Notes: generated from the sequence alone by a model not told the origin. 64,000 bases of DNA from Patescibacteria group bacterium (GCA_018971685.1 JAGXAG010000004.1:2416-66415), one strand, 5' to 3'. Shown: positions 15,883-64,000, counted from the stretch's first letter. A program made the numbers and translations.

Positions 15883-15961
15883 GAGCCCGAAGGCAACAAT
15901 CACGATCATGGTAGCAGACCTAGATTGAAAGTCAATCTCTTGAGATTATTTGAAGTACTAC

Positions 15962-15998: not shown

Positions 15999-16004
15999 GT
16001 TAAA

Positions 16005-16057
16005 TTTTCGTCATTAAAATGTTATCGGTTTGTAATCAGATTGTAATTTCGAATCGG
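16005..16057 (+). promoter_or_regulatory. conserved promoter module copy C upstream of toxin gene 2
   Basis: cgttaaattTTCGTCAttaaaatgttatcggttTGTAATcagatTGTAAT. Confidence 0.5.
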
Positions 16058-18367: not shown

Positions 18368-18495
18368 ATGAGTTTATCCTTTATCTTGTAAACCTTTTTA
18401 TTATACAATAAAAAGGACTTGTAAAGTTTATTATATACGACTGACGAGACCTAATCTGGCGCAAGATCATCTCCTAACAATCTTTTGAAAAAAGC

Positions 18496-18519
18496 AAAAA
18501 CCGCCTTAAGGCGGTTTTT
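18496..18519. terminator. bidirectional terminator aaaaaccgcc-ttaa-ggcggttttt
   Basis: Read directly from the sequence. Lies 3' of gene 18556..20649. Confidence 0.6.
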
Positions 18520-18555
18520 GCTGACATTAAACTGTTTGGCTTATACCAACAGAGT

Positions 18556-37396: not shown

Positions 37397-40300
37397 TATT
37401 CTTTCAGGCCGAATGATTCTCCGACCTCAATCGCTCTAAGTCCCGTTGCCTTCTTCAGTTCATTGCCATATTTTTTCACCAAGCCTTCCAGATCTTTCGT
37501 AACTTCAAGTACGGCAATATCGCCCACCGTCAATCCTTTTTCCTTGCGCAAGTCCTGAATTTTTCTTATAAGTTCGCGAAGGTCGCCCTCCTCTTTCAAT
37601 TCCGGCGTGATATTCGTGTCCAACTCCACTTCACCGGCGATCGAATCGTCGAATACGACTTCTTTTACATTTACTTCATCCCTTATAAGTCTCAATAATT
37701 CCTCATTCAAGGCCTCGGATTTTTTATTCGATTTGCCATTTGAATTTTTTACTTTAAGCTTTGCCAACGGCTGGCGAACATTTATTTTGGCCGCCATTCT
37801 CGCCTCCAACCCTTTCGACGCGATTCTTCTCACTTCTTCCATATCATCCAATAATTTATGCTCACCTGTGTCGGGTTTGCCCCGCGAAGCTTCGGCGTAG
37901 TGGGGCCACTCTTCCAAGTGTACGCTTTCCAGCTGACCACCCGCTTCTTGGTACAAATAATCAGCGAAGAACGGCGTAAACGGCGCCATTATTTTCGCCA
38001 GCGTGATGAGAATATACTTCGTCGTATTCAAGGCCTCTTCCCTGCTTTTACCGTCTTCTTTGAACCGATCCCTGGATCTCCTCAGATACCACTGCGAGAG
38101 ATCGCCTACGAAATCGCGGATAGCGCGCGTCGGCTCGAAGAATAAATAGTCGTCGAGATTTTTCGTGACATTCTCGATCAGCCAATTCATTCTGGAAACA
38201 ATCCACGCGTCAAGAACATTTTTCGAAGCGGTTTTGGTTATTGTTTCTTGGTTATTGGTTATTCCCCCTGTATACAGCTTATAAAACGCCAGTACATTCC
38301 CTGCCAAGTTGAAAACTTTCTTGACCGTTTCGTCCACCGTCTTCTCGTCGAAATTTTTTGAATCCCCCGCCTGATTGATCGAATACATCCAGAAGCGCAA
38401 GGCATCCACGCCGTATTTTTCCATCATTTCCCACGGATTGACCACATTGCCTATATGCTTAGACATTTTCTTACCCTTGGCGTCCAATAAATGTCCGAGG
38501 CACACGACATTCCGGTAAGCCTTGCCTTTGCCCATCAAAGTTCCCACGGCATGCAATGTGTAGAACCAGCCGCGCGTCTGATCGATGGCTTCGGAAATGA
38601 AATCCGCCGGATAACTCTTTGATTGGTTTTCGCCAGGCGCACCATCTATGTATTCTTTGTTCTCGAACGGATAGTGGTCCTGCGCAAACGGCATCGCACC
38701 GGAATCGAACCATACATCCATGACTTCTTTCACTCGCGACATTTCACCGCCGCATTCGCACTTGAGCTTAACTTCGTCGATGAACGGGCGGTGCAGATCT
38801 AGCTCGTATTCGGCATTGTGAGGCAATATTGAGAAATCGATTTTGCGCACCTCGGCTTTATCCAAGTATTCGTTCATTTCGTACTCGATTGATCCCGCCC
38901 TATCCAACCCTTTAGCAACCGCCAGAAGCATGACGGCAGGCGTACCATGGGTGATGATTAAAATTTTTTTACCTTGGTATTTCGATTCTATTTCATATAA
39001 AAAGTCGCCAACTCGGTTTTTTATCGAACCGTACAGTTCGCCCCTGAGCGGCATTATCTCGAACCTCTGTTGGAAAGGGTATGAATCGGCAAAACCGGCG
39101 CCATTTTTTCTGTCCCAATCACCGAAACCTAGTTCGTGCAGACGCTCGTCCGTTATCACCCGACTTTTATCGAGGCCGAGCTTCCCCCTCAATATCTCAG
39201 CCGTCTCCTGAGTTCGAGTCAGAGGTGAAGTGAATATGATATCCGGCAACGCTTCCTTGAATATATCTGCGGCTTTTTCTACTTGTTGCCTACCGGCTTC
39301 AGTGAGATGATATCGTTCTTTCGGATCGTCATCCAAAATGCCCGCCACATTATTTTCCGCCTCGCCGTGACGCATGACAAAATAGGTATTGCGCGGCTTT
39401 TGCTTGATCTCTTCGACCGAACCGACAACTCGCCTCTTGCCGCATTTATCGCATGACCATACCGGCAGCGGCGTGCCCCAGTAACGCTCGCGGGAAATCG
39501 CCCAATCTTTTACTTCGCGCAACCATTCGCCGAAACGGCCTTCCTTGATGTGTTCCGGTTCCCAATGGATACCTTCGTTCTCTTTGACCAGCACATCGCG
39601 CAATTTCGACATGGCGATATACCAAGAATCGCGCGCGTAATAAATAAGCGGCGTATGGCAGCGCCAGCAAAAAGGATAATTGTGCTCGTATTTTTCCTTG
39701 GCGAACAAAAGCTTGCGACTCGCCAAGTCTTTTATTATCGCCACATCGGTCTTCTCATCTTTGACAAAAGCACCTGCCAAGAACCCAGCCTCTTTCTTGA
39801 ATGTTCCGTCTTCATTCACCAGATGATACTTCGGCAAACCGACTTTGCCGCCAAGCACAAAATCATCCTGACCGTACATGACCGCCGTATGTACGATGCC
39901 CGTACCGTCATCCGTAGTGACGAAGTCAGCACCACAGACCTTGAATGCATTGCCGAGTTTTTTCTTCTCTTCACCGGAAATATTGTCGGACAGGAACGGA
40001 TATAGAGGTTCGTATTGAAGATTGACGATGTTGTATCCTTTTAATTGGGAATTCACTTCAACAAAAGCGTGATGCCCTTGAGGTATAGGCATAAATGTAA
40101 GCCTGTCTTTTGCAATAAAATAAACCTCCGGCAATATTTTATCTGAGACATCTTCAATCAATCTTACTCGTACATAATCAATTTTTGCACCGACTGCCAG
40201 AGCAACATTCCCTGGCAAAGTCCATGGCGTCGTTGTCCAGGCTAATATAAATGTATTGTCATCACTCATGAAATCACCGATTTTCTGCCCGACTTTGACT

Positions 40301-40932
40301 TTAAACTTCACCGTCACCGCCAAATCCTTAACATCTTCATACCCTTGCGCCAATTCATGGGAAGATAATGCGGTGCCGCATCTGGGACACCACGGCACTA
40401 CCTTGTAGTCCTTGTAAAGCAATCCGTCGTCGTCAACCTTTTTGACAATATTCCAAAGGGATTCAATATATTCCGGCTTGTAGGTAATATATGGTTTTTT
40501 CAGATCAATCCAATAACCGATCCGATCGGTGAACTCTTCCCATTCGTGCACGAATTTCCACACGCTTTCTTTGCATTTGTCGTTGAATTTGGCGATGCCG
40601 TAGCTTTCGACTTCTTTCTTAGACTTCAGGCCGAGCTCTTTTTCAACCTGTATTTCAACAGGCAAACCATGCGTATCCCAGCCGCCCTTGCGCCGCACAT
40701 GGTAGCCGCGCATGGTTTTGTAGCGCGGTATAGCGTCCTTGAAGGCGCGCGCCTCGAGATGGTGTATGCCCGGGTGGCCATTCGCGGTCGGAGGACCTTC
40801 ATAGAAAATAAATTCTCCTTTTGGCGCCTTGCCCGCCGGCCATTTATTCAGGGACTTTTCGAAAATACCCTTCTCTTTCCAAAAAACCAGTACCTTCTCC
40901 TCGCGCTTTGCGTAAACGGATTTTTTATCCAT
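37396..40932 (-). CDS. ileS: isoleucine--tRNA ligase carrying an internal histidine-phosphatase (PGAM-like) domain insertion
   Basis: HIGH-type motif PPTANGHPGIHH; DWAISRERYWGTPLPVW; KMSKHIGN. Between the two zinc-knuckle halves (CDKCGKRR … KCECGG) sits a ~197-aa segment RNTYFVMRHGEAENN…ITHGTPA with the RHG/H motifs of the histidine phosphatase superfamily. Confidence 0.9.
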   Translation of the reverse strand: MDKKSVYAKREEKVLVFWKEKGIFEKSLNKWPAGKAPKGEFIFYEGPPTANGHPGIHHLEARAFKDAIPRYKTMRGYHVRRKGGWDTHGLPVEIQVEKELGLKSKKEVESYGIAKFNDKCKESVWKFVHEWEEFTDRIGYWIDLKKPYITYKPEYIESLWNIVKKVDDDGLLYKDYKVVPWCPRCGTALSSHELAQGYEDVKDLAVTVKFKVKVGQKIGDFMSDDNTFILAWTTTPWTLPGNVALAVGAKIDYVRVRLIEDVSDKILPEVYFIAKDRLTFMPIPQGHHAFVEVNSQLKGYNIVNLQYEPLYPFLSDNISGEEKKKLGNAFKVCGADFVTTDDGTGIVHTAVMYGQDDFVLGGKVGLPKYHLVNEDGTFKKEAGFLAGAFVKDEKTDVAIIKDLASRKLLFAKEKYEHNYPFCWRCHTPLIYYARDSWYIAMSKLRDVLVKENEGIHWEPEHIKEGRFGEWLREVKDWAISRERYWGTPLPVWSCDKCGKRRVVGSVEEIKQKPRNTYFVMRHGEAENNVAGILDDDPKERYHLTEAGRQQVEKAADIFKEALPDIIFTSPLTRTQETAEILRGKLGLDKSRVITDERLHELGFGDWDRKNGAGFADSYPFQQRFEIMPLRGELYGSIKNRVGDFLYEIESKYQGKKILIITHGTPAVMLLAVAKGLDRAGSIEYEMNEYLDKAEVRKIDFSILPHNAEYELDLHRPFIDEVKLKCECGGEMSRVKEVMDVWFDSGAMPFAQDHYPFENKEYIDGAPGENQSKSYPADFISEAIDQTRGWFYTLHAVGTLMGKGKAYRNVVCLGHLLDAKGKKMSKHIGNVVNPWEMMEKYGVDALRFWMYSINQAGDSKNFDEKTVDETVKKVFNLAGNVLAFYKLYTGGITNNQETITKTASKNVLDAWIVSRMNWLIENVTKNLDDYLFFEPTRAIRDFVGDLSQWYLRRSRDRFKEDGKSREEALNTTKYILITLAKIMAPFTPFFADYLYQEAGGQLESVHLEEWPHYAEASRGKPDTGEHKLLDDMEEVRRIASKGLEARMAAKINVRQPLAKLKVKNSNGKSNKKSEALNEELLRLIRDEVNVKEVVFDDSIAGEVELDTNITPELKEEGDLRELIRKIQDLRKEKGLTVGDIAVLEVTKDLEGLVKKYGNELKKATGLRAIEVGESFGLKE

Positions 40933-44786: not shown

Positions 44787-45209
44787 CTATTTACCCGTAG
44801 AACCGAAACCGTTACCGCCCCTGTCGGATCCGGACAATTCTTCGACTTCTTCGAAGTCGGCCGTTTCGATCTTTTGTATCAGAAGCTGGGCTATTTTATG
44901 CCCTTTTTCAAATTTAAATACTGTGTCAGACAAATTCATAAGGCCAACTAGAATTTCACCCCTGTAACCTGAATCTATTACACCACCAAACACTTTGAGT
45001 CCAAACTTTTGAGAAAGCCCGCTTTTATCCCATATAAGGCCAACATAACCATAAGGTATCTCAATTGCGATACCCGTGGATACACTTTTGCGCTCATGTG
45101 GTTTTATTTCAAGATCTTGCGTACAATAAAGATCAAAACCGGCATCGCTTGTATGGGCATAAGACGGGTTTTTAGAATCAGCACTTAATTTTTTAAATTT
45201 TAATTTCAT
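44787..45209 (-). CDS. dut: dUTP diphosphatase
   Basis: …AHTSDAGFDLYCTQDLEIKP…GLIWDKSGLSQKFGLKVFGGVIDSGYRGEI…. Confidence 0.85.
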   Translation of the reverse strand: MKLKFKKLSADSKNPSYAHTSDAGFDLYCTQDLEIKPHERKSVSTGIAIEIPYGYVGLIWDKSGLSQKFGLKVFGGVIDSGYRGEILVGLMNLSDTVFKFEKGHKIAQLLIQKIETADFEEVEELSGSDRGGNGFGSTGK

Positions 45210-45784
45210 TTATTTACCAATTTTGTTATGGTAATTTCTTCTTCTTTTGGATCTACAAAATGTTGCCAGTCTCTACCGTGGTACCGACCGGTATTTTTAT
45301 AATCTTTAATCGGCTTACTGGATAGCTCGGAAAATAATATCTGTCCTATGCGCATTTTCGGACGCAAAATTATAGGTATCTGATTCATATTGCACAATTC
45401 AAATGTAATATTTAAAAAATGCCCCGGATTAATTATACCTGCGGTATTATGAATAACCAACCCTATTCTAGCCAAACTGCTTTTGCCTGAAAGTTGAATC
45501 AAGTATTTATCTGACCCGAAATAATCAATAGAAGTGCCAAGTATATTCACCCCCGGATGTAAAATAAATACACCTTCTTCTTCGGAAATTATAATCTCTT
45601 TTGGCTCCGGATATATCTTTTTGACAGGATCGATCGCGGGGGTTGACTGGGTATTGTGGACAATAAATTTATTGCCCAGAAGTATATCATAACTCGCCGG
45701 TTGTAAGCGGGTCTCGTCAAAACCTTCGATTAAAATCGAACCATCTTCGATAGCTTTTCTTATGTCTCTGTCCGATAAATACAT
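45206..45784 (-). CDS. dcd: dCTP deaminase
   Basis: MYLSDRDIRKAIEDGSILIEGFDETRLQPASYDILLG…, a trimeric dUTPase-fold deaminase. Overlaps dut by 4 nt. Confidence 0.85.
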   Translation of the reverse strand: MYLSDRDIRKAIEDGSILIEGFDETRLQPASYDILLGNKFIVHNTQSTPAIDPVKKIYPEPKEIIISEEEGVFILHPGVNILGTSIDYFGSDKYLIQLSGKSSLARIGLVIHNTAGIINPGHFLNITFELCNMNQIPIILRPKMRIGQILFSELSSKPIKDYKNTGRYHGRDWQHFVDPKEEEITITKLVNK

Positions 45785-52487: not shown

Positions 52488-53105
52488 TTAAATCGTGTGC
52501 GCCAGCCAAACAATACCGTAGATCGCGAACAAATTCATGGTAAAGGAAATCGGCATCAAGACCGCCACGCGCGTTTTCGACAAGCCCATGAGCGCAAGCC
52601 CCATCTCGTCCGGCAAAGGTGAGAATATGATGACGGCGCCTGCGAGCGGGGCCAGCCATTTCATAAATCCCAAATGAAATGAAGATAAAATATGCTTCTT
52701 TACCGACGGTTTGACCGAAGCCGCAAGGTCGTCAACGAAACGATCGCGGATAAAGTAAAAGAGTATAAGATCGCCGCACATCGCGCCCAATGCGCCCCAA
52801 AGCGCGATCGTCCAAGGATCGGCCAAAAACGCGATCCTCGATAGGGCCACCGACGCCGGAGCAATCGTAAACGCCGAGGTGAAAAATACGCCCGAAACAA
52901 AACTGGCTATCACCGTACCGCCAAAAAGCTTGATCAGACCATCAATCACTCCCATCCACGAGAATAAAAGCGCGATCATGGCGCCGACAAACATAAAAAA
53001 AATATCTTTCGCCAATTCTTGTTGCGCTTTTTCCTTTCTCAAAATTTTCATGGAAACATTATAACATTTTCCGCCGCACCCGTTCTCGTTTGGCGACAGT
53101 AACAA
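52488..53105 (-). CDS. hypothetical membrane protein (possibly DedA/VTT-like)
   Basis: 205 aa, about 5 TM helices. Weak resemblance to DedA (…GDLILFYFIRDRF…). Confidence 0.4.
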   Translation of the reverse strand: MLLSPNENGCGGKCYNVSMKILRKEKAQQELAKDIFFMFVGAMIALLFSWMGVIDGLIKLFGGTVIASFVSGVFFTSAFTIAPASVALSRIAFLADPWTIALWGALGAMCGDLILFYFIRDRFVDDLAASVKPSVKKHILSSFHLGFMKWLAPLAGAVIIFSPLPDEMGLALMGLSKTRVAVLMPISFTMNLFAIYGIVWLAHTI

Positions 53106-53589
53106 TAACTGCGACAGTTTGGAAAATCAGTCGCATTTCCATATCGGCGGGTGCTTGCCCGGACCGTACGGCAACGGTCAGACGCCGCTCATCAGAGACA
53201 ACGGCGAACCGGTGGTTGCGGGGATAGCGTCTTCGATAAACAGTAATTAGATACTCTATTCTACACCTCACTTATCACCTCAAATCCGCTGAAGCTTCCT
53301 GTAATAGCCAGTCCAATGATTGTCTTCGCCAATCCTTGCTTCTTTGAACGAGATGATCTCAAACAGAAAATTGAGCGTATGCAAGCCCGACTACGGGAGA
53401 CGGAGAACCGCGCACAGAAATGGTTAGAACTAACCGAGGAAACTTTCAGCGTGGCTGCGGTTTTAGCAGAAAAATAAGAAACTCCAACTTTCGATTGATC
53501 AACCATAATTTATTGAATGTAATTCAACTCCATATCCATTTGCGCTTTGATCTGCAGTGCCCGATCTATAAGGTGATCGCCGATTTCTG

Positions 53590-53844
53590 TTGGTGGAGAG
53601 TATGGAAGCGGTAGCTACAGCCAGCTTCCTACAATCCCAAGACAAAGCTCCGTATATCCGCCTTGCCATACGAAAAATTGATACCTTGCGCGTCCTCCTC
53701 ATGGTCCTCTGGGAAACGAAGTCACTAGATGACAAGAAATACATCGCTCTTTCTACAAAGATAGACGAAGTTGGGAGGATGCTCGGCGGATGGATTGGCA
53801 AGCTCTCTACGCAAAACTCTCCCGTAAAGACGGGAGAGAAATGA
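53590..53844 (+). CDS. four-helix-bundle protein (23S rRNA intervening-sequence protein family, TIGR02436-like), possibly truncated/degenerate
   Basis: …APYIRLAIRKIDTLRVLLMVLWETKSLDDKKYIALSTKIDEVGRMLGGWIGKL matches the C-terminal two helices of the family. The in-frame upstream sequence (RFDLQCPIYKVIADF from a TTG at about 53527) matches helix 1. The conserved middle segment (…SQIRRAAxSIPxNIAEG…) is missing. Confidence 0.45.
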   Translation: MVESMEAVATASFLQSQDKAPYIRLAIRKIDTLRVLLMVLWETKSLDDKKYIALSTKIDEVGRMLGGWIGKLSTQNSPVKTGEK

Positions 53845-53846
53845 AG

Positions 53847-53990
53847 TGAGTTGCGGAAGACAAACCAGTCGTTGGTGTTGTCGAAGTTCTCGACCCAATT
53901 GAGGTTCGCCTTGCGCTTCGAGTCATTCCACCAGACATAGCACGCGTTGCGGTTGCCCTCGAAGGAATTGTACAGGATGCCATCCGTGCC
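53847..53990 (-). pseudogene. partial duplicate (about 80% identity) of the 3' end of gene 54337..54960
   Basis: 53847-53990 aligns with 54337-54480 (ttgcggaagacaaaccagtcg(t/c)tggtg…ccaccagacatagcacgcg…ccctcgaagga…). No intact ORF. Confidence 0.4.
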
Positions 53991-54336
53991 ACTGCCCCTC
54001 GAATACTCTCAAGGCTGTATCGCATTCGGCATCTATAATGCCCTAGCATCTCGTACCAAGTAGCTTCATTTTTGTGAAGTGTCTGCATACACCACTCTAC
54101 CTGAAACCGTAATCGCAGGTACTCTCGATGTATGGATACTGGCTTCGGTAGCAGGAAACCGTAATCTCCCGCGTATTCACCTATCGCCACATCGAATTTT
54201 ATCACATATACAAAAGTTTAACCCCCGCACACATCGCTGTATGCAGGGGCTGAATGTTTTAGGCTCGTCATTCTTATCCAAAGTTTCGGACAAAGGGCAA
54301 AAGTTCCAAAAGGACCGAGTGCCAGAGTCCCGAGAG

Positions 54337-54960
54337 CTACTTGCGGAAGACAAACCAGTCGCTGGTGAGGCCGAAGCCCTCGACCCAATCGAGGCTCGCC
54401 CTGCGCTTCGAGGCACGCCACCAGACATAGCACGCGTCGCGGCGGCCCTCGAAGGAACAGTCCGTCGTAGCCACAGCATACATCGGATTTTGTCCGAGTT
54501 GTTCGGGGAGCCTCGGGTGCTGTTCACCGATAGCGAAGGCTTCGCGCGGATGAGTCCGCTTGAGGCCTTTAGTTTCCGCCCATGCAATAGCCTTGTCCCA
54601 GTTGCCGTCGCCGTTCGGGAAGTTCAGGAGGATGAGTTTCTCCTTGACTTTGCCCTTACCGACAGGAGCATATTGGTCCCCCACCTTGCGGACATTGTAA
54701 TCGTTGGGGGTATTGGGACCAGCGGCGTTCACAGCGGCCTGCCACTCGCGGTCCTGTTTCACTTCGACTTCAAGGATATGGACGCGAGCACCTTTCGGCG
54801 CTTCGATGTCCGTGAGTTCAACCTTGAGCGAGTCGAGGAAACGGCCGAATGAGCCATCGTCGAGGGCTTGCTGGAAGCGAGCGCGGCCTACTTGCTTCTC
54901 ATTGGCGATTTTGCGGCCGCATTCCATCTGACTGACAGTTACGGGCATGTATTTGCTCAT
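54337..54960 (-). CDS. hypothetical protein
   Basis: 207 aa, GC-rich coding, no recognised motif. Its 3' end has a decayed copy 350 nt downstream. Confidence 0.45.
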   Translation of the reverse strand: MSKYMPVTVSQMECGRKIANEKQVGRARFQQALDDGSFGRFLDSLKVELTDIEAPKGARVHILEVEVKQDREWQAAVNAAGPNTPNDYNVRKVGDQYAPVGKGKVKEKLILLNFPNGDGNWDKAIAWAETKGLKRTHPREAFAIGEQHPRLPEQLGQNPMYAVATTDCSFEGRRDACYVWWRASKRRASLDWVEGFGLTSDWFVFRK

Positions 54961-55044
54961 AACCTTCCTTTCACTGCTTCTCCGATGCCTTTCGCATGCT
55001 CCGGCAGAAAGCCGTGCAGTTCAATGTTCATGATTTAGTCCTTT

Positions 55045-55665
55045 CTACTGATGCTGTTGCACGTTTGTATTTCCGAAGTTTGCGAGCCGAAACTCATCGA
55101 TCGTCATCGGCTTCGCCCAATTGCTCACCACGAGGTCCATCGTCTGACGCCGAGATTCCTCACCGCCATCATAGGTGTCGGTGGCATCGAGCAAAATCCT
55201 GACATCGTAACCTTTGAACCGAATGGCCTGCGCCGTGCAGAGCACGCAGCAGTCGAGCGTCAAGCCAAAGAGCACGACTGTGTCGTCCGGCTTAACGAAC
55301 GATGCGAGCCAGTCATAGAAGAGCTCCGGAAACGCTCGAGGCAGGCCTGGCGGCTTATCGGCGACGCCGATGTTGTCGCGGGTGAAGAAGGGCGAATTCA
55401 TGCATTTAACCCAGCGTGATCCGACAAGGACATCGGGAATCTCCGAGGTGTAACCCCAGGTCCCCGGATTGCATGAATCGTCCAAATCCCCCGGTCGAGG
55501 CTGGCGGTAGTCGGAAATTATCTCTCCGATATCCACCTCCGCGTGCAGAAGAATCGGGATGACGTTGAGCTTGATAGTCTCGAGACATGTCCGGCTTGAC
55601 TTGAAGTGCTTGCCTTCCGGCCGGGTGAAGTCGTACTGCAAATCTACAGCAATGACTTTGACCAT
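55045..55665 (-). CDS. isochorismatase-family cysteine hydrolase
   Basis: MVKVIAVDLQYDF… (D of the triad) and …VVLFGLTLDCCVLCTAQ (nucleophile Cys), the canonical isochorismatase/nicotinamidase fold motifs. Confidence 0.7.
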   Translation of the reverse strand: MVKVIAVDLQYDFTRPEGKHFKSSRTCLETIKLNVIPILLHAEVDIGEIISDYRQPRPGDLDDSCNPGTWGYTSEIPDVLVGSRWVKCMNSPFFTRDNIGVADKPPGLPRAFPELFYDWLASFVKPDDTVVLFGLTLDCCVLCTAQAIRFKGYDVRILLDATDTYDGGEESRRQTMDLVVSNWAKPMTIDEFRLANFGNTNVQQHQ

Positions 55666-55767
55666 AATTGATCCTTTGGTTGATTGTTATTGTGCTTTGA
55701 AAACCAGGGCCACCCTAGCATTTCTGCTTGCAAAAGTCAAGAAACTATGGCAATATAATTTCAGGTT

Positions 55768-56523
55768 TTGAAAGGAGATATTATGAGCTTTTTTAACAAC
55801 TTTCATCTTCTGGCAAAGCCTTACCAAGGTACTGACCAGAAGCCTGACAAGCACTACTCGATTTTACCGACCGTACTAAAGCTAGTCGGCGATCCGAGAG
55901 GCAAAGCAGTACTCGACGTAGCGTGTGGAAGCGGGTTCTTTAGCTTCCCTATCGCTGCAATGGGTGCCACGCGAGTCATTGGCATCGATAACTCCGAGCA
56001 GCAACTTGAAATCGCCAGGTGTAACTCCGTTGCTAATACAGAGTTCCATCTGTGTGACATCTTCGACGGTGAACTGCCGTCCGCAGATATTGCCGTGATT
56101 CCGTTCGCGGCGAATTACTCGAAGGACTTGCGGATGTTGGCAGAGTTGTTCGCACGACTCTTTCGCTGTCTGAACCAAGATGGCCATGCAGTCTTCGTCA
56201 TGGATCTGCCTGGCGAACGAGGTGGCTTGCCATACAAACGCATGAGAAGTTTCGGTGCAGTCAAATGGTGGGCACAAGGACCATATGACGGCGCGATGTT
56301 CTGCAACCACCTATTCGATGGTCGAGGAAAGGAAATCTGCTCACTCTGGGCATATTACTACTCGCCCCTCACTATCCAGTTCGCTTTACAGGATGCTGGC
56401 TTCCGAGACATCCGCTGGCATAAGCCTGTTGTGTCTGATGAAGGTCTCAGGACCCTGGGCCAAGAGTTCTGGCAAGGATACCAGGACAATTGCGAGCTCG
56501 GGTATATCACGGCGGAAAAATGA
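55768..56523 (+). CDS. class I SAM-dependent methyltransferase
   Basis: Motif I VLDVACGSGFFSFPIAAMGATRVIGIDNSEQQLEIAR. Substrate unknown. Confidence 0.75.
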   Translation: MKGDIMSFFNNFHLLAKPYQGTDQKPDKHYSILPTVLKLVGDPRGKAVLDVACGSGFFSFPIAAMGATRVIGIDNSEQQLEIARCNSVANTEFHLCDIFDGELPSADIAVIPFAANYSKDLRMLAELFARLFRCLNQDGHAVFVMDLPGERGGLPYKRMRSFGAVKWWAQGPYDGAMFCNHLFDGRGKEICSLWAYYYSPLTIQFALQDAGFRDIRWHKPVVSDEGLRTLGQEFWQGYQDNCELGYITAEK

Positions 56524-56569
56524 TCCACAATAATTCACACAAACGGTGACGCGCAAGCGCCGCCGTTTT

Positions 56570-57208
56570 TTATTTCCAACCAATCATCTCTTGGACAACC
56601 GGCCTAATAGCGTTGAACATGAGCTCATGACCTTTATCGTTCGGATGCAAACCATCATCCTGTATAAATAATTTCTCGTGACCCGTCTCTATAAAGAGTG
56701 AGTATGCGTCAACAAATCTCAATCCGAATTGATCTGCCAACTGCTTCAACACTTGATTGTATTCCTCCATGTATTTATTCGATCTAGTCTTACCATTTCT
56801 GTCTCGATTCATTACTTCGATCACTGGAAGAATGTTTACTATCAAAATATTCTTCGAAATATCTAATGCTTTTTTGATGACAGTCTCGAGATTGGTCCAG
56901 AAGTCCTCCTTTGAGACTCTGAATTTGTTTTGAGCCGCAAGGAAGGCGGCGTCATTGGCACCAAAAGCAAAGATAAATACGGCTTCTTCGCCTTCCCGTT
57001 CGCGTGCGTTGGTTTCATTCTCAAATCTTTTGACCAGACCATCAGTCGTCTCACCGGGAATGCCTAGATTGTAAAACAGCCCGTAATAATTCGGATTCTT
57101 CTCTTGGATATCGTCCAGATAAGCTCGCAACCGCGTTGCCCATCCTGAATTTTTGATATCCCAAGCACCGTAGGTGATACTATCGCCGAATGCATATATT
57201 ACTGCCAT
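56570..57208 (-). CDS. SGNH/GDSL-family hydrolase
   Basis: MAVIYAFGDSITYG (block I GDS), GAND (block III), and C-terminal DGLHPN (catalytic D/H). Confidence 0.75.
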   Translation of the reverse strand: MAVIYAFGDSITYGAWDIKNSGWATRLRAYLDDIQEKNPNYYGLFYNLGIPGETTDGLVKRFENETNAREREGEEAVFIFAFGANDAAFLAAQNKFRVSKEDFWTNLETVIKKALDISKNILIVNILPVIEVMNRDRNGKTRSNKYMEEYNQVLKQLADQFGLRFVDAYSLFIETGHEKLFIQDDGLHPNDKGHELMFNAIRPVVQEMIGWK

Positions 57209-57319
57209 AATTCTTTGATTATACGATAATTTGCGCGATTATGCAGCGAAAAATTAACGACAAAAATGACTCCGCGGTTAGACGGAGTCAGTGTGGTGAC
57301 ATTTAAACAACGGGTAGCT

Positions 57320-58633
57320 TCAAGGAACCTTGACCTCTTCCTTGAGAAGCCGCCGGACTTCAGCAACAGGATCGGCTGCACCGAGGACTTGCCTGCCCAT
57401 GACAAGAAACGAAGCGCCCGCCTCGAGAGCACCCTGTGGTGTTCCGATTCGCTCCTGGTCCCCTTTGTCGGCACCTGGCGAACGGACTCCCGGGATAACC
57501 AACTCGAATTTAGGATAATCGGCCTTGAGAGCCGCCGCTTCTTGGGGCGAACAGACGAGACCGTGGGCACCAGCGCGATTGGCGATAGCGGCGAGTTTCT
57601 TCACCTGATCCAGGGGCAGCCGGCTATAGACTTCCTCGCAGTTGGCTTGATCCATCGAGGTCAGAACCGTCACCGCAAGAACCTTGGTCGGCGTCCCTTC
57701 AAAGGCTTTAACCACGGCCTTGATCATCGCTTCCCCGCCGGAGGCATGGACCGTCACAGCCCAGGGCGGATTGATGGCGAAACGCTTGGCGATATTCTCC
57801 AGGGTATTCGGAATGTCATGGCCTTTGAGGTCAACCATGACGCGTCCATAGACCTGCAAATCCGGCACCAGGTTGCGATAGCCTTCCCAGAAGAACAGGT
57901 CGTTCACCTTGAGAATACAACCAGTGGTGCGAAGCTGGTCGATGAGAGGCAACACATCCGACCAGCTCTTGCCGTCAAGAGCAACGATGATCGGATTCTT
58001 GGCTTCGACGTCCTTTTTGCAGCGTTCCATGATGCCGTGGCCGATGAGATACCGGCGAACATCGTGGAGCGTCATGCCGGACCAGACTTCGAGGTCGAGC
58101 TTCTCGTCGGAGAACTTTTTCCGCCATCCCTGCTGCCGGTCAACGAGGACGATGAGCGGACCGAGGTCCACTTCGGCCGAGAGGCACGTCCGAGCCGGGA
58201 TAATCTTCGAAGCGCCGTCTGTAACGACATCATCGATGATGACGAACGGCTCCTCACGGACCAGGCGGCCGATAGTGTTCGCTTTCGAGACGCGGCCTTC
58301 CTTGGCCTGTTCGCGAATTGTCGTGTAAGGCAGGCCCGTTTTGAGCGACAGCGGTCCCGCGAAACAGGAAACCGCATCAGGAACCTCGCCGAACCGTTTG
58401 ACCTTGAGGCGCAGAAGCGGAATCGTGTAGAGGTCCGCCAAGAGCTCAATAGCGTTCGGATCGTTGCGAGCATTACGGAGATTCATGTAGATATCCGTTG
58501 TGCCGCCACTCTTCAGGGGAAGACTGCGGTTATTGTCGTGCTTCACCAGTTCGGCATCGGATTCAACCAACTCCTTGATGACTTCTTCCTGCTCCCACGG
58601 AGCAAGCCAGTGTGAATTTCCAACTTTTTTCAT
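57320..58633 (-). CDS. bifunctional orotate phosphoribosyltransferase / orotidine-5'-phosphate decarboxylase (PyrE-PyrF fusion, UMP-synthase-like)
   Basis: N-terminal half has the PRTase signature VIIDDVVTDGASK and LKSGGTTDIYMN. C-terminal half has IIVALDGKSW (ODCase D-x-K), ILKVNDLFF, VMVDLKGHDIPNT, and VIPGVRSPGADKGDQ…GASFLVMGRQV. Confidence 0.8.
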   Translation of the reverse strand: MKKVGNSHWLAPWEQEEVIKELVESDAELVKHDNNRSLPLKSGGTTDIYMNLRNARNDPNAIELLADLYTIPLLRLKVKRFGEVPDAVSCFAGPLSLKTGLPYTTIREQAKEGRVSKANTIGRLVREEPFVIIDDVVTDGASKIIPARTCLSAEVDLGPLIVLVDRQQGWRKKFSDEKLDLEVWSGMTLHDVRRYLIGHGIMERCKKDVEAKNPIIVALDGKSWSDVLPLIDQLRTTGCILKVNDLFFWEGYRNLVPDLQVYGRVMVDLKGHDIPNTLENIAKRFAINPPWAVTVHASGGEAMIKAVVKAFEGTPTKVLAVTVLTSMDQANCEEVYSRLPLDQVKKLAAIANRAGAHGLVCSPQEAAALKADYPKFELVIPGVRSPGADKGDQERIGTPQGALEAGASFLVMGRQVLGAADPVAEVRRLLKEEVKVP

Positions 58634-58782
58634 AGCTTTTATTCCAGTTTTCCGTCATTTTGTTTTCAAACCTATCTGCCACCAGATTACAAGCATTTTG
58701 ACCAAAGTCAATGTTTTTGAAAATGACAACAAAAAAAGACTCGCACACCGAAGCATGCGAGCCGTTTGTAAGTAATTCTGAA

Positions 58783-59958
58783 TTAACCAACGAGTTTCCA
58801 CGGGAGCTCTGTGCCTCCCTTGAAAACCTGAACGGCTCCAACCTTGACTGGAACCTTGAGGGGCGTTCGCTCGATTGTCATCTGCTCCGAACTCACCCTC
58901 ATGCCATACGTGCCAAGGAAGTTTTCGGAAAGAAACGCGCCGAGATGTTCCAGGGCATTATCTTCATCAAAGGCTGTCGTGTACATCTCGACGGCTGTAG
59001 GTGCGGTGAAGATTCCTGCCGCGCAACCGTAGCAACGAGACTTCATCTGCTCATCGTGCGGTGCAGAATCAGTACCAGCACCAAAGCGCCGGTGCCCTCC
59101 AGTCACGTATTTGCGAACCCGCTGCCGATGCGATTCACGCTTCGGCACCGGTTTGCAGTAGTGACCGGCATTCATGCCGCCCCAAAACATGGCGTTACGG
59201 TTGATCATCAGGTGATGGGCAGTCACTGTCGCGAATAGCGTGGCATGCTCATCGCAACAGCCATACCCCGCTACAAAGTCCGCCGCACGACCATCAGTCA
59301 GGTGTTCGAAGACCACCGGCAGTCCCGGGAAGGACTTGAGGATGGGCTTGAGGTCGCGGTCAACGGAGACAATCTCTCGATCGAACTCGTCGACGTCTTC
59401 CTCGACCGCTTCGAAGTGTCCAAGGAGTGGGATTTTGTGTTTCTCCATCGCTTCGAACACTGGATAGCGACCAAGAAGATCTTTCACGCCATGCGCCGAG
59501 CCGGTAGTCCCGCCCTGACCTTTTTGATTGGCCATGTAGAGCTTTACTGCTCGCCAGACGCCTTCCTGAAATCCCCGCACGACTTCGTCAGGACTGGTAC
59601 TGTCGGTCAGGTAACACGTCATGCAGGGCTCAAACCGAGAGTAATATCCGGGAGTGCCTTCAGCGTGAGCTTGATACACCACCGTTATACGTTCTCTGTA
59701 GGCCTTCGCTTTCTCGATCGAAGAGATCGGGTCTGCGAGGTTAGGCATGATGATCGCTCCAGTAGCACGCTGTTTGAGTGTACACGGAAGGACTGTTTTC
59801 ATCATCTCACTGTCTCGGATGTGAAGGTGGCGATCAAACCACCGAGGGATTGTAATTCTATTCAGCATTTTGTTCCTTTCTATCGGTGAGGGACTCGTCA
59901 AGAATCGTGGTGATAGTGGCCGTGCATAGATCCTTGTCATCCTTGACATAATGATCAA
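58783..59958 (-). CDS. pyrC: dihydroorotase (class II, E. coli PyrC-like)
   Basis: ITIPRWFDRHLHIRDSEMMKTVLPCTLKQRATGAIIMPNLADPISSIEKAKAYRERI aligns almost residue by residue with E. coli PyrC ([20 protein letters not shown]…[24 protein letters not shown]). Also …GTDSAPH… Likely start MLNRITIP (about 59868). Confidence 0.85.
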   Translation of the reverse strand: MIIMSRMTRIYARPLSPRFLTSPSPIERNKMLNRITIPRWFDRHLHIRDSEMMKTVLPCTLKQRATGAIIMPNLADPISSIEKAKAYRERITVVYQAHAEGTPGYYSRFEPCMTCYLTDSTSPDEVVRGFQEGVWRAVKLYMANQKGQGGTTGSAHGVKDLLGRYPVFEAMEKHKIPLLGHFEAVEEDVDEFDREIVSVDRDLKPILKSFPGLPVVFEHLTDGRAADFVAGYGCCDEHATLFATVTAHHLMINRNAMFWGGMNAGHYCKPVPKRESHRQRVRKYVTGGHRRFGAGTDSAPHDEQMKSRCYGCAAGIFTAPTAVEMYTTAFDEDNALEHLGAFLSENFLGTYGMRVSSEQMTIERTPLKVPVKVGAVQVFKGGTELPWKLVG

Positions 59959-60124
59959 GCCGATGCCGGTTCATCTTTTCAGAGTAACGATCCTCCGTTT
60001 CCCACTCATCTGTACTGGTTACTTTGTTTATAGCCTGCCAGATTTTTTCGGCAAGTTGCCGATAGTCCGTCTTTGTCACAGTTTGCATATTCCTTCCTTT
60101 CTGACGAATGATGTTGGCGCCCAT
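59858..60124 (-). CDS. hypothetical small acidic protein between pyrD and pyrC
   Basis: 88-aa ORF in an operon-internal position. No motif. Confidence 0.3.
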   Translation of the reverse strand: MGANIIRQKGRNMQTVTKTDYRQLAEKIWQAINKVTSTDEWETEDRYSEKMNRHRLDHYVKDDKDLCTATITTILDESLTDRKEQNAE

Positions 60125-60954
60125 GGAGTTCTCAAATGAATCGCGCCGAAGCTCACGGCTTTCGCTCCAAGCCTGCGTACACGATCCATGTCTTCAAATT
60201 CCATGACGCTTGGACCGATCACCGGGAGCGGTCCTTGTTTGGCAAGAGCTTCGACCGCCGCCCAGTTGTGTTTCTGTGCCGGTTTGCCAGACACTCCACC
60301 GCCCCCGCCGCCGACTCGTTGCTCGAGCTTCCACAAAGGTGTCCGCTCGCCGTTGATGAAGACCGTCTTCCACGGCACACTGTTCAAAGATATCGCTTCA
60401 GCAACACCTTCGAGGCCGTGCGCTATAGACAAGTAGTCTTGATCTACTGAAACTTTGACAATAACTGGGTGACGCGAAACGCGTTTGACCGCTTTTACGC
60501 TATTCACCACGGCCTCAGCCGTCTGCATCGCATGACCGGTGTTCGGACACGAAGGGTTGACCTCCATACCGACCAGATCAAAGCGATTGAGCTTCTCGGT
60601 CATTTCCACCAACTCCTTCTCTTCGCCGAAGATCGATCCGACGAGAGGAATCTTGTGGAAGTCGAGTGTCGGACCGATGTCCCTGCACCACCATTCGACA
60701 CCCGGGTTGGTCAGACCGACTTTATTGACCGAACCACCGGGAATGAGGCGTACGCAGGTCCACGGTTTCCACATCCGCAGATTGCCCGGACGCGGATTGC
60801 GCGTCAGGGTCTTGATGACAACAGTAAAGAGTTTAGGTTTGATAAGCCCGAACCAGACTAACGGCCGTTCCCACGGCCACCCCTTGCCATCGAAGGCAAG
60901 CGAACCGCTGGCGACCATGTATTTGAAAGCATGGCCGTTTGAAAGAGTGATCAT
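60076..60954 (-). CDS. pyrD: dihydroorotate dehydrogenase (class 1-like, Cys in active-site loop)
   Basis: NKVGLTNPG, EVNPSCPNT (catalytic Cys, as in class 1A), and GGGGGVSGKP (FMN phosphate-binding). Confidence 0.8.
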   Translation of the reverse strand: MITLSNGHAFKYMVASGSLAFDGKGWPWERPLVWFGLIKPKLFTVVIKTLTRNPRPGNLRMWKPWTCVRLIPGGSVNKVGLTNPGVEWWCRDIGPTLDFHKIPLVGSIFGEEKELVEMTEKLNRFDLVGMEVNPSCPNTGHAMQTAEAVVNSVKAVKRVSRHPVIVKVSVDQDYLSIAHGLEGVAEAISLNSVPWKTVFINGERTPLWKLEQRVGGGGGGVSGKPAQKHNWAAVEALAKQGPLPVIGPSVMEFEDMDRVRRLGAKAVSFGAIHLRTPWAPTSFVRKEGICKL

Positions 60955-61265: not shown

Positions 61266-61625
61266 ATGAAAAATCGATTCATAAAAGCGAATCCGAAAGA
61301 CATCGAGCATTCGAGCTTCGCCGGCTACCTGCAAGCTTCATACAAAGACCTCGTCGCTTGCTTCGGCGAACCGAATGACCGGACCAAAGACGGTCCGTGG
61401 CAATCTTATGATTGGAAGGTCCGCGCCGAATGGACATGGAAGAGCACGGCTCGGAGAGATCGGGCCGTCATAACCATCTACGATTACAAGGAAACCCAGC
61501 CTGTCGATGAGGTAACGCTGTGGCATGTCGGACTGAAGGGATCAGCAAAGCGGCTCAGGGAGTTTATGACCAAGAACAGAGCCAACCTGATCCGTCTGCC
61601 AAAAAGTTTAGTGAATTTAGGTTAG
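61266..61625 (+). CDS. hypothetical protein
   Basis: 119 aa, no motif. Confidence 0.3.
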   Translation: MKNRFIKANPKDIEHSSFAGYLQASYKDLVACFGEPNDRTKDGPWQSYDWKVRAEWTWKSTARRDRAVITIYDYKETQPVDEVTLWHVGLKGSAKRLREFMTKNRANLIRLPKSLVNLG

Positions 61626-61668
61626 TTTGAAGCAAAATTCACTAAAAAATAGCAAAAAGACGTGAAAA

Positions 61669-62187
61669 TTACTTTCTCTTTGGTCTTTCCCCTTTTATCA
61701 GTCTATCGAACGCCTCGAGATTACCCATAGCATCATGGACCGGATTGTGATCATGCTTCGTGATACGCAAATGCTTCCAGGACGACGAGTCCATGAAATC
61801 GCCAATGAGACCAGCATAGAAATCGCCGATTCTCCTTGCGGAATATCCGAACGGATTCCGGCCGAGAGTCCTCCAGAAGCTATCATTGATCCACTGCCAA
61901 TCAAACGCCGGATTATCACTGACGAATTTCGGCCGCTCTTCTCCGCACACCTCAAACAGCCACTTCTCGAATTTCTCGAACACTTCCTTTTCATTAAATA
62001 CTTTTCCGGTATAGACACGAGTAGTCGGATTCTCGGCCGACCTATGACCTTCGATAATAACACCGTGGAATGTCGCCCGCGACGGGTACGCGGCCACGCC
62101 AAATTCGGTGAGCTTCCCCAAGCTCGGACATTTGCCATTGGCTTCGCAGTCGATGAAGATTAGGTTTTTGATGTCGGAATTGTTCAT
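61669..62187 (-). CDS. DEDDh 3'-5' exonuclease (DnaQ/RNase T-like)
   Basis: Exo I IFIDCEANG (D-x-E). Exo III HNPVHDAMGN (H-x4-D-A). Confidence 0.6.
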   Translation of the reverse strand: MNNSDIKNLIFIDCEANGKCPSLGKLTEFGVAAYPSRATFHGVIIEGHRSAENPTTRVYTGKVFNEKEVFEKFEKWLFEVCGEERPKFVSDNPAFDWQWINDSFWRTLGRNPFGYSARRIGDFYAGLIGDFMDSSSWKHLRITKHDHNPVHDAMGNLEAFDRLIKGERPKRK

Positions 62188-62276
62188 ATTGATACAGTCT
62201 AGCTAAAATAATATTCTTTAGAAACAAAACTGCCCTCCTTCCTGGGCAGCATTGTTGCGTTGTATTCAGGACTGCA

Positions 62277-62615
62277 TTACCAAGGTAGATTCACTGCCAT
62301 TGGAACTGCATTCGGAAACGCATCGCCTATTAGCGGACGTAGAGTATTTGCAAGGTAACGCTCTACCCCATTACGGTATGTTGCTAGAACTGGAGCCCAG
62401 GTCACGTACAGATTGTTATATCTTGTGATTGCCGGGTCATTTCTATGGGCTGAGAGACGATCTTTAATGATGCCTTGTCCTACTCTGACGACTTGTCCGT
62501 TGGCCTGCCAGATAATGTAGACTCCTTCCATGCTGTCGAAATGGGAATGTCCCAAATCTACCCATAAAAGTGAACCCCATACATTACCAAGACATTTCTG
62601 CCAGGAAAGTTGCAT
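62277..62615 (-). CDS. GIY-YIG domain protein (short)
   Basis: GVYIIWQANGQVVRVGQGIIKDRLSAHRN matches the GIY-x10-YIG…R…H pattern. Confidence 0.45.
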   Translation of the reverse strand: MQLSWQKCLGNVWGSLLWVDLGHSHFDSMEGVYIIWQANGQVVRVGQGIIKDRLSAHRNDPAITRYNNLYVTWAPVLATYRNGVERYLANTLRPLIGDAFPNAVPMAVNLPW

Positions 62616-62698
62616 GACTATGTGATACCAGAGTAATAACTATTTACTTTTTGGTGTCGCCGTAGCCGGAGAGTCTATTTTTTATTCGCGTAATTACA

Positions 62699-62953
62699 AT
62701 GAGTATGAAAACAATCCACGAGACCGACTTCTATCGCACCTCCGACCTCGCTTGCGCGGCGGCTATTTCCCTGTTCGTGCGGCTCGATAACATCGACAAA
62801 ACCGACAGACGCCGGGCATTTTTCATATTCGAACGTAATAGCGAATTGGATGGACTGCTTGAGTCATTCTGGAAAGGCACGCTCACGGTCGAGCCGCGTG
62901 CTTATTTTGATCAGATCAAGGCGCTGAAGACACGACTGTACGAAATCGACTAG
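62699..62953 (+). CDS. DUF5659-like small protein
   Basis: …FYRTSDLACAAAISLFVRLDNIDKTDRRRAFFIFERNSELDGLLESFWKGTL… follows the DUF5659 pattern (T.DL.LAA.L…G..L…….R..F.FE.S.EL…..YW.G) as recalled. Not verified. Confidence 0.45.
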   Translation: MSMKTIHETDFYRTSDLACAAAISLFVRLDNIDKTDRRRAFFIFERNSELDGLLESFWKGTLTVEPRAYFDQIKALKTRLYEID

Positions 62954-63063
62954 CATGGCCAAGAAATCTACCAAGCCAAATACGGTCCCCGCACCATCGT
63001 CTAAAGAAGAGCGGATCTTTATCGATCGCTTGGTGGAGATTTTGATCATGCAGGTCGAGGCTA

Positions 63064-63615
63064 ATGAAAATAACAATGAACATCAACGGGTACTTGAAAC
63101 TGTATAGATATGACTTCCTCATGAGGCTGAAAGGCCTCACTGATCAGGAAATGCGCCTGTATCTGACGCTTGTTGCGCTGACCAAATGGGATCGCAAAAA
63201 CAAGGAAACATTCGGCTTGGTACACATATCAGTCAGGAAATTGAAAGAGAAATATCTGAAAAAGTGGTCAATCGGCAAAATCGGCACGATCAGGAAATCC
63301 CTGGTTACTAAGGAATTTTTGACACCAGCCGAAGGAGGTGGATATCTTGTTGAAAACTACTGGATCTATCAGGCAACCATGCCGCGGGCTGAACTGGCTT
63401 TTCAGTGTATCGAACAAGGAATTCAACCCACCGAACAGAATGTTCGGGAGATTGAACAGCGCCCAATTCTGGCATTGGAGGCGGGCAAGCAAAATCTGTT
63501 GCAAAGATTCACCAATACGTTTCCGCCTGTTCAGCCCACTGAACAGAATCGTGAGGCAGAGAATGAAAAGAAAGAAAAAGAAGATAAGAGAATCGAACCG
63601 TCCCAATCCATATAG
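63064..63615 (+). CDS. phage replisome-organizer-like (N-terminal wHTH) protein with QPTEQN repeats
   Basis: GYLKLYRYDFLMRLKGLTDQEMRLYLTLVALTKWDRKNKETFG resembles the Phage_rep_org_N pattern (W.KLY…L…A….NG). Two QPTEQN(V)RE repeats near the C-terminus. Confidence 0.4.
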   Translation: MKITMNINGYLKLYRYDFLMRLKGLTDQEMRLYLTLVALTKWDRKNKETFGLVHISVRKLKEKYLKKWSIGKIGTIRKSLVTKEFLTPAEGGGYLVENYWIYQATMPRAELAFQCIEQGIQPTEQNVREIEQRPILALEAGKQNLLQRFTNTFPPVQPTEQNREAENEKKEKEDKRIEPSQSI

Positions 63616-63761
63616 GATCGAATGAAGGCGAACCGGACGGAAAATCGCAACCCATCGCAATCCACATAACCGTACATCACCACCAACACATCTCAAAATA
63701 GCAGACCATCACAGTCCAGATAGATGGACAAAGATGACCAAAAACCCCCAAATCGCAATCC

Positions 63762-64000
63762 ATGAAATATTCGCCAGAACAGATAAAAATTTTTGAAGAC
63801 ACCATTTACGACATCGTATGTCGTGACCCTGGAGTAAGCACGCGATCGCTGTGCTACGAGCTTGAACAACAGCATATAAAGCTCAGCCGAGCCTATGCGA
63901 CCAAGCTTATGTGGCAGGCATGCAGGAAGCTCACAGATAAGAAAAAAGAGGCTACGGAACGACGAGTTGAATTTGAAGCCTGGAGAGAAAAGCTTAGAGA
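63762..64000 (+). CDS. partial ORF running off the window end (HTH-like: MKYSPEQIKIFEDTIYDIVCRDPGVSTRSLCYELEQ…)
   Basis: Open frame with no stop before the window end. Confidence 0.25.
   Translation, partial: MKYSPEQIKIFEDTIYDIVCRDPGVSTRSLCYELEQQHIKLSRAYATKLMWQACRKLTDKKKEATERRVEFEAWREKLR

Follow-up and report, generated by a model that had tools for sequence, protein, structure and literature searches.

A putative integrative genomic island carrying pyrimidine biosynthesis genes in a Taylorbacteria-like bacterium of the Candidate Phyla Radiation

The DNA analysed here is a stretch of 64,000 nucleotides from a Patescibacteria group bacterium (GCA_018971685.1, JAGXAG010000004.1:2416-66415; hereafter the window), which at positions 53106–60954 carries a block of pyrimidine biosynthesis (pyr) genes and accessory genes. 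We consider it probable that this block belongs to an integrative genomic island, about 12.7 kb long, in a Taylorbacteria-like bacterium from the Candidate Phyla Radiation (CPR), and that its pyr set moves laterally within the radiation. The proposed island would start at 53.1 kb, extend some 1.8 kb beyond the window end and be inserted upstream of a host block encoding a VTT-domain membrane protein, DsbA, VKOR and a methyltransferase. Counted from this host flank, it would comprise a diversity-generating retroelement (DGR) cassette, three accessory enzyme genes, pyrEF, pyrC and pyrD, small genes and, finally, a gene for a large serine recombinase, which presumably mediated integration.

The host belongs to the Paceibacteria within the CPR and is close to Candidatus Taylorbacteria, as follows from its rRNA and housekeeping gene content and from the affiliation of its nearest relative. 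The first-pass annotation, made from the sequence alone, had already guessed at a CPR host, and rightly so: Ca. Taylorbacteria bacterium RIFCSPHIGHO2_12_FULL_45_16 is the nearest species-representative genome and the sole one with a close relative. In addition to the genes discussed below, the window encodes 23S and 5S rRNA, ftsK, recA, efp, metS, ileS, glyA, tmk, thyA, dut, dcd, folA, folD, dsbA and vkor. An identical PyrEF protein is encoded on contig JAGWKR010000005.1 (GCA_028865255.1) and in several other assemblies.

Compositional boundaries and mobility genes

The island was originally noticed by its GC content, estimated at 55–58% in the block against 45–48% in flanking core genes, and sliding-window GC and tetranucleotide analyses had been suggested as a check. 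Both were run, and the oligonucleotide signature, not GC, marks the island. Single genes do reach 54.6–58.3% GC (pyrEF 57.1%, pyrC 54.6%, pyrD 54.7%, the isochorismatase-like gene 55.4%, the DGR target gene 58.3%), with the methyltransferase and SGNH hydrolase genes at 51.1% and 42.1%, but the whole block has only 51.9% versus 49.2% in the rest of the window. Of the core genes, ileS (47.1%) falls within the estimated range, but ftsK (54.4%) does not. The block value is the maximum among windows of the same size, tied with the ftsK-recA block. GC percentage was rejected as an island marker, the effect being small and equalled by the latter block; taken alone, it would argue for rejecting the island.

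The signature changes regionally. CpG rho, calculated in 1.5-kb steps, is 1.39–1.56 up to 52.3–53.8 kb and then 1.08–1.23 without a break up to window-equivalent 65.8 kb, the transition falling between 52.3 and 54.5 kb (coordinates past 64,000, termed window-equivalent, denote DNA beyond the window end). Island genes differ from core genes with p = 9e-6 in a Mann–Whitney test. Tetranucleotide correlation with the whole window, 0.90–0.96 for ordinary 4-kb windows, amounts to 0.71–0.76 over 53–62 kb; in the host core, CG-rich tetramers (GCGC 2.1, CGGC 2.9) and A/T runs are over-represented, unlike in the pyr block (GCGC 0.61). The per-gene delta* distance to the core corresponds to z = 3.0–5.0 for the three pyr genes, 3.5 for the methyltransferase gene and 3.0 for the DGR zone. 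Overall, z lies at 2.1–5.0 in seven of ten island segments and at 1.0 or less in the other three (DGR target, SGNH and orf119+exo172); in core enzyme genes it does not exceed 2.1, with SHMT, FolD, MetRS, Tmk and IleRS all below 1.

The left boundary proposed at 53106 coincides with the sharp signature step at 53.1 kb. The VTT-domain gene (52488–53105, minus strand; weak PF09335 match, CpG rho 1.65, 57% amino acid identity to its neighbour in the related locus L006) is the first one to show the host signature, its 5′ end adjoining the island. The right boundary proposed at 60954 does not hold, as the signature covers the remainder of the window and a further ~1.8 kb. This continuation within the window (61266–64000, both strands) contains orf119 (+), an exonuclease-like gene of 172 aa (−), orf112 (−), a DUF5659 gene (+) and orf183 (+).

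The island-signature compartment ends with a gene encoding a 564-aa large serine recombinase (window-equivalent 64136–65830), possessing Resolvase, Recombinase and Zn_ribbon_recom domains and matching the phrog_95 integrase with E = 6e-91. The recombinase gene shares the island signature, and the compartment may constitute a single element. Beyond window-equivalent 65.8 kb a third compartment begins, with CpG rho of 0.68–0.83 and 35–37% GC. Its sequence up to 70.9 kb (L011:1-5100) encodes a PIN protein, a 457-aa serine recombinase, ParB and a zinc-ribbon protein, and this AT-rich compartment appears to be a distinct element arranged in tandem with the island. A phage origin was also considered and rejected: matches to PHROGs are limited to the recombinases and ParB, and phage structural genes are absent.

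Known integrative islands with a large serine recombinase share with this region a sharp compositional edge, an integrase at one end and metabolic cargo, as well as what appears to be alternative cargo at one chromosomal site in a related lineage, and a second island in tandem.

The pyrimidine genes and their relatives

The gene content given in the first-pass annotation is confirmed: a pyrD-like gene, a class II pyrC and a fused pyrE-pyrF, each on the minus strand, and genes for an isochorismatase-like hydrolase, a methyltransferase and an SGNH hydrolase. The pyrD-like gene (60076–60954) encodes a putative, divergent class-1 dihydroorotate dehydrogenase (DHODH) of 292 aa (PF01180, E = 1e-17), which adjoins pyrC in five lineages. 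Its catalytic cysteine, found in an NPSCPN motif, aligns with that of the class 1 enzyme of Lactococcus lactis (DHODB, PyrDB subunit); unlike in that enzyme, no gene for a PyrK partner was seen near pyrD. The protein scores far below the cutoff of every curated NCBIfam model for DHODH (at best 87 bits against a cutoff of 269). Often annotated as hypothetical, this divergent PyrD-like enzyme merits biochemical testing.

The gene pyrC (58783–59868) encodes a class II, Escherichia coli-type dihydroorotase of 361 aa (TIGR00856, 295.9 bits against a cutoff of 292.95; PDB match with E = 6e-79), its open reading frame (ORF) being open from a TTG codon at 59958. The motifs HxH, KLY, HxE, EH and DSAPH align with the E. 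coli structure 1j79, so that the metal ligands and the carboxylated-lysine motif of the E. coli-type enzyme are the same. A terminator-like hairpin is located 3′ of the gene (58738–58763). The gap of approximately 210 nt between pyrD and pyrC contains a called 76-aa ORF (59858–60088, minus strand), missing in the relatives L013 and L015, in which pyrD and pyrC overlap.

The fused gene pyrEF (57320–58633) encodes an orotate phosphoribosyltransferase (OPRTase; aa ~30–205) followed by an orotidine monophosphate decarboxylase (ODCase; aa 211–432), and it is also followed by a terminator-like hairpin (57267–57290). The ODCase part matches TIGR01740 with 135 bits against a cutoff of 92 and retains the DxKxxD motif of E. 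coli-type PyrF, read in the sequence as DLKGHD. The OPRTase part is matched weakly (E = 5e-10; 39 bits against a cutoff of 208), but its phosphoribosyl pyrophosphate (PRPP) loop, VIIDDVVTDG, is intact. The domain order is that of the animal UMP synthase (UMPS), from which the window protein differs by its very divergent OPRTase domain; the model of the described bacterial fusion, NF004034, matches poorly (22.5 bits against a cutoff of 656). A 449-aa stop-free ORF without a Pfam match runs antisense over the whole of pyrEF (57266–58615, plus strand) and is most likely a by-product of the codon usage of pyrEF rather than a gene.

PyrC, the PyrD-like protein and PyrEF are together predicted to convert carbamoyl-aspartate to UMP. 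The earlier observation that the block lacks pyrB and carAB extends to the full window, where no ORF of at least 140 aa matches pyrB, carA, carB, pyrG or pyrH; likewise, no pyrB or carAB was found in 10-kb flanks in ten relatives. Bacterial pyr genes are normally scattered around genomes, and therefore the absence of pyrB and carAB from the window says nothing about the whole genome.

Each of the three proteins has hundreds of homologues, with identities of 58–97% for PyrEF, 66–84% for PyrC and 71–90% for PyrD, and every named one belongs to Patescibacteria, including Taylor-, Staskawicz-, Kaiser- and Vogelbacteria. Any donor would therefore be another CPR lineage. The first-pass idea of a horizontally acquired block thus finds support in the signature step, the recombinase and the low synonymous divergence of pyrEF described below, but the pyr genes are not foreign to CPR, and the transfer would have occurred within the radiation. 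Pairs of pyrD and pyrC are embedded among core genes in L013 (a Taylorbacterium), L033 (a complete Kaiserbacteria genome) and L035. L015 carries pyrD-pyrC-pyrE-pyrF among core genes, with pyrE and pyrF unfused and a PyrF only ~33–36% identical to that of the window, and the fused pyrEF occurs alone in L007–L010 and L020.

In ten other Paceibacteria loci the pyr genes are outliers in signature and in GC content at third codon positions (GC3). For pyrEF, GC3 is 0.68 versus ~0.47 in L016, 0.58 versus ~0.33 in L010 and 0.716 in L009 (GCA_034680565.1) versus 0.15–0.36 in all neighbours but one. For pyrD and pyrC it is 0.56–0.59 versus ~0.43 in L013 and 0.56 versus 0.39 in L033, with smaller positive excesses in L015, L034 and L035; the purCE, purB and purH genes of L016 share the excess. 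That the Patescibacteria-specific, highly conserved pyr set stands out by composition in genome after genome of the Paceibacteria suggests that it may move laterally within the radiation. The L009 gene (L009:10001-11320) appears as a one-gene spike (GC 0.60, GC3 0.72, CpG 1.12) on a background of 39% GC and CpG 0.55, flanked on one side by a gene for an alcohol dehydrogenase and on the other by one of the 3-dmu-9_3-mt family (PF06983), and represents a very clean single-gene transfer.

The dinucleotide signature of the pyr genes is nearer to a common pool than to the core of their own host in eight of nine other loci, although homology inflates such comparisons among pyr genes. Tetranucleotide usage (TUD) of the window's pyr block correlates at 0.60 with the host core and at 0.82 with purCE, purB and purH of L016; the pur genes are not homologous to the pyr genes, and homology therefore cannot explain the latter value. 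Nor can it explain that the non-pyr genes of the island fit the L016 pur signature as well, with delta* of 0.056–0.116 versus 0.09–0.24 for core genes.

A tract of 2 kb links the window to a related (sister) Taylorbacteria lineage represented by L006 and L016–L019. Between the window and L006, pyrEF is 96.6% identical at the amino acid level and 89% at the DNA level, with synonymous divergence (dS) of 0.55, and the 3′ half of pyrC (pyrC′), the sole part of this gene in the L006 lineage, is 88.6% identical. The adjacent VTT, DsbA, VKOR and methyltransferase sequences are 53–64% identical (51–57% in BLAST local alignments), with saturated dS of at least 2.7. The pyrC′-pyrEF tract lies on the same side of the VTT gene in both lineages, and in the related lineage more than 20 contigs, originating from many samples, show pyrEF joined to VTT-DsbA-VKOR. 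Beyond the tract, L006 and L016–L019 carry purCE-purB-purH, and the window carries the SGNH, methyltransferase and isochorismatase-like genes and the DGR. No remnants of the pur genes or of the L016 left-flank genes were found in the window. These arrangements are best read as related islands at one site with exchangeable cargo. The truncation of pyrC and the larger compositional mismatch in the L006 lineage suggest that it is the more recent recipient.

Two further observations concern pyrC in these relatives. Its 3′ 175 codons are kept directly upstream of pyrEF at L006/L016:9325-9849, and the similar lineage L013 has an intact pyrD-pyrC pair at another locus.

Degenerate retroelement, accessory genes and other features of the window

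Next to the block, the first-pass annotation described a decay zone with an internally deleted four-helix-bundle gene and a partial gene duplication. The zone does exist, and the four-helix-bundle gene is a truncated avd, but the supposed duplication is a pair of variable repeat (VR) and template repeat (TR): the zone is a degenerate DGR without a reverse transcriptase (RT). The target gene (54337–54960, minus strand) encodes 207 aa, of which the VR at its 3′ end (54341–54457) forms the final 39 codons in frame. The TR (53851–53967, minus strand; 117 nt) lies 490 nt downstream of the VR and is 87% identical to it. All 15 mismatches fall at TR adenines, of which there are 29 in 117 nt (P ~2.5e-11). 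The TR is rich in AAC and AAT codons, and the pair includes an invariant 3′ segment of some 20 nt. Between the repeats lies a terminator-like hairpin with a 14-bp stem (54220–54251, minus strand), possibly a candidate for a role in DGR homing.

The truncated avd (53587–53844, plus strand) retains the C-terminal ~85 aa, matching positions 63–106 of the 107 of the bAvd profile PF22296 and aligning to aa 27–112 of the L023 Avd with 66% identity. The expected site of the RT gene (53106–53586) is occupied by non-coding residue with an orphan ORF fragment (53334–53495), for which no relatives were found. No RT was detected by tblastn with the RTs of three relatives in the window or 6.9 kb beyond, nor by Pfam among all unannotated window ORFs; the cassette is a remnant or relies on an RT located elsewhere.

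Relatives of the target protein are encoded at twelve metagenome loci. A downstream copy of the repeat was detected at five of them, and in all five the mismatches are confined to template adenines. Eight target relatives, 52–62% identical, combine an invariant scaffold with hypervariable VR positions. The order in the three relatives inspected is target with VR, TR, a 112–122-aa Avd on the opposite strand and a 327–349-aa RVT_1 RT. The remnant is explained by one deletion that took away the RT gene together with the 5′ part of avd, which is convergent, and such a loss would have left the DGR unable to diversify by itself. The VR is identical in all seven loci carrying it (two NCBI assemblies and three Logan runs); these loci being near-clonal, this is a weak test, uninformative on activity beyond the absence of recent diversification. 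The target has no Pfam or PDB match, even with a family profile search, and no relatives in IMG/VR, and its single-sequence AlphaFold2 model (pLDDT 38) is unusable for recognising a C-type-lectin or Ig-like fold, as expected for the display of a VR.

DGRs of the Bordetella phage BPP-1 type are recognised by a TR/VR pair differing at TR adenines, a VR in the 3′-terminal part of the target, an RT and Avd. The window cassette shares with the DGRs of CPR, DPANN and phages the adenine mismatches, the AAC/AAT-rich TR codons, the invariant 3′ segment, the 3′ VR and, in truncated form only, the avd gene. Unlike them, it has no RT, and its target matches no known protein family. In addition, avd is convergent to the TR in this DGR family, unlike in BPP-1-type systems. 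The cassette shows how diversification cassettes decay. Four Logan contigs from three runs all end exactly at 54161, in the interval separating the two repeats. No exact repeat of at least 20 nt shared by this region and the rest of the window was found to explain the break, possible causes of which include strain heterogeneity or a second copy elsewhere.

Three accessory enzymes are encoded between the DGR and pyrEF: an isochorismatase-family cysteine hydrolase-like protein (55045–55665, minus strand; PF00857, 28.4 bits against a cutoff of 27) with Asp/Lys/Cys triad motifs read in the sequence, a class I S-adenosylmethionine-dependent methyltransferase (55768–56523, plus strand; PF13649 and PF13847, E = 1e-12) and an SGNH/GDSL hydrolase (56570–57208, minus strand; PF13472, E = 3e-29; 42% GC). 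The earlier suggestion that this trio belongs to a separate cassette agrees with its position in the variable cargo slot, which in the related lineage holds purCE-purB-purH.

Several features of the window outside the island can be mentioned. An IleRS-like protein of 1178 aa (37396–40932, minus strand) contains a histidine-phosphatase domain (PF00300, aa 518–686) inside its class I catalytic domain, an unusual insertion dividing the PF00133 match. The clearest GC outlier in the window is the dut-dcd pair (44787–45784, minus strand; GC 37–40%, GC3 0.33–0.35, codon-usage z of 5–6), embedded in a thymidylate/folate cluster of glyA, tmk, thyA, folA and folD. The match to 23S rRNA (5673–9071, minus strand) covers 3057 nt versus a 2925-nt model, suggesting an insertion; 5S rRNA lies downstream, and protein genes instead of 16S rRNA are found upstream. 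Two genes for PG_binding_1 proteins of 587 and 697 aa (16604–20649, minus strand) deviate more than any other genes of the window in tetranucleotide and codon usage (TUD r of 0.43–0.60, z of 6.6–10.6), which probably reflects repetitive, low-complexity sequence. An adjacent pair of genes encoding PemK/MazF-like toxins of 157 and 146 aa, with ~42–43% GC, is located at 15372–16459 (plus strand).

Alternative explanations and biological meaning

Several observations weigh against an integrative island with laterally moving pyr genes. The recombinase gene lies outside the window and is linked to the pyr genes by the shared signature only. Unlike in typical integrative islands, no att repeats, empty site or tRNA target could be found: no direct repeats flank the block at 53.1 and 61.0 kb, where the first-pass annotation had proposed to look for them, no repeat pair brackets it, the window contains no tRNA genes, and the regions upstream of the VTT gene have no homology between lineages that would reveal an att site. 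Serine recombinase cores can be as short as 2–12 bp, and the missing att repeats are therefore weak evidence. PyrD, PyrC, PyrEF and the 564-aa recombinase have no relatives on IMG/VR viral contigs (2.9 million contigs searched for the three Pyr proteins). The block itself is heterogeneous in GC (42–58%), and the resemblance of the island to the pur genes may only mean that both are generic beside an extreme host signature.

Some of these contrary findings, and others, can be assembled into an alternative in which the pyr operon is native and vertically inherited, a long-standing trait typical of the Paceibacteria that here merely neighbours unrelated mobile DNA. Its odd composition would reflect gene-specific constraint (protein composition, codon selection), and acquisition would be limited to the DGR remnant, the accessory genes and the region of the recombinase. 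The GC3 of the pyr genes (0.59–0.67) is within the host range, their excess GC being mostly at first codon positions (GC1), and codon usage, deviant in pyrEF (z = 5.8) and pyrC (z = 3.3), is normal in pyrD (z = −1.1). Moreover, copies with saturated dS of 1.6–2.3 keep a similar composition, which fits intrinsic constraint, there are hundreds of Patescibacteria homologues with 58–90% identity, and pyrD-pyrC pairs or full operons occur amid core genes of L013, L015, L033 and L035. The linkage of pyrEF to VTT-DsbA-VKOR in two diverged lineages could equally mark an ancestral location. Against constraint as the explanation, however, the signature shift is regional, involves unrelated genes on both strands and has a sharp edge, and other soluble enzymes (SHMT, FolD, MetRS and Tmk; ThyA is borderline with z = 2.0) carry the host signature. 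In L009 the GC3 excess, up to +0.44, is too large for constraint alone, and the pyrEF dS of 0.55 between saturated flanks requires recent exchange. We therefore regard native inheritance of the pyr genes as rather unlikely; an early reading as an ordinary native operon without any island had been dropped on the oligonucleotide signature evidence.

The exchange could also have run outwards, with the window lineage as the donor of pyrC′-pyrEF from a long-resident block to lower-GC relatives such as the L006 lineage. The pyrC 3′ half left beside pyrEF in L006 resembles a recombination breakpoint, and pyrEF, with GC3 of 0.68 among flanks of ~0.47, is an outlier in L006/L016 and near-normal in the window (0.67 versus ~0.60). 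The di- and tetranucleotide signature of the block, however, is not that of the window host, so that the block is not fully at home there either. Export from the window lineage appears improbable to us, even though it and the island reading are not mutually exclusive. Finally, the window being a contig of a metagenome-assembled genome, the compositional step might be an assembly chimera near 53.1 kb, and assemblies from three Logan runs do break at 54161, with another contig ending at 53549. Still, the junction is spanned in several assemblies, including similar places on contigs of at least 70.9 kb, and the same VTT-DsbA-VKOR block is joined to pyrEF in the related-lineage contigs mentioned above, which makes a chimera very unlikely.

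CPR/Patescibacteria are thought to rely on their hosts for nucleotides. According to a recent preprint, 93% of their genomes lack de novo synthesis, the genes being phylogenetically scattered (10.64898/2026.06.21.733656, preprint 2026), and temperate CPR phages carry some nucleotide-metabolism genes (PMC12911398). These auxiliary metabolic genes of Patescibacteria phages, like the island proposed here, are mobile DNA proposed to relieve CPR deficits in nucleotide synthesis. Unlike those phages, the window region has no phage structural genes and no Pyr relatives in IMG/VR. A limited literature search found no de novo pyrimidine genes as island cargo in a CPR host, and for pyrimidine synthesis in Parcubacteria/Paceibacteria it gave general statements only.

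The element type is already known, and the interest of the island lies in the implied lateral circulation of nucleotide-synthesis genes in the radiation. An integrase island, variable cargo and pyr outliers in many hosts together point to lateral spread within it. We tentatively speculate, as a possibility less probable than the island itself, that nucleotide-synthesis genes (pyrD-pyrC, pyrEF and purCE/purB/purH) form a compositionally coherent pool circulating among Paceibacteria, partly on serine-recombinase islands at a recurrent VTT-DsbA-VKOR site. Patchy nucleotide autonomy would then arise from ongoing gain within CPR and not only from differential loss, and a set without pyrB and carAB might use host-derived carbamoyl-aspartate, dihydroorotate or orotate. 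The locus provides a concrete picture of how nucleotide-synthesis genes may move, by an integrase island with variable cargo at one site. If this is true genome-wide, CPR bacteria would have a more changeable metabolic capacity than expected from reductive evolution alone.

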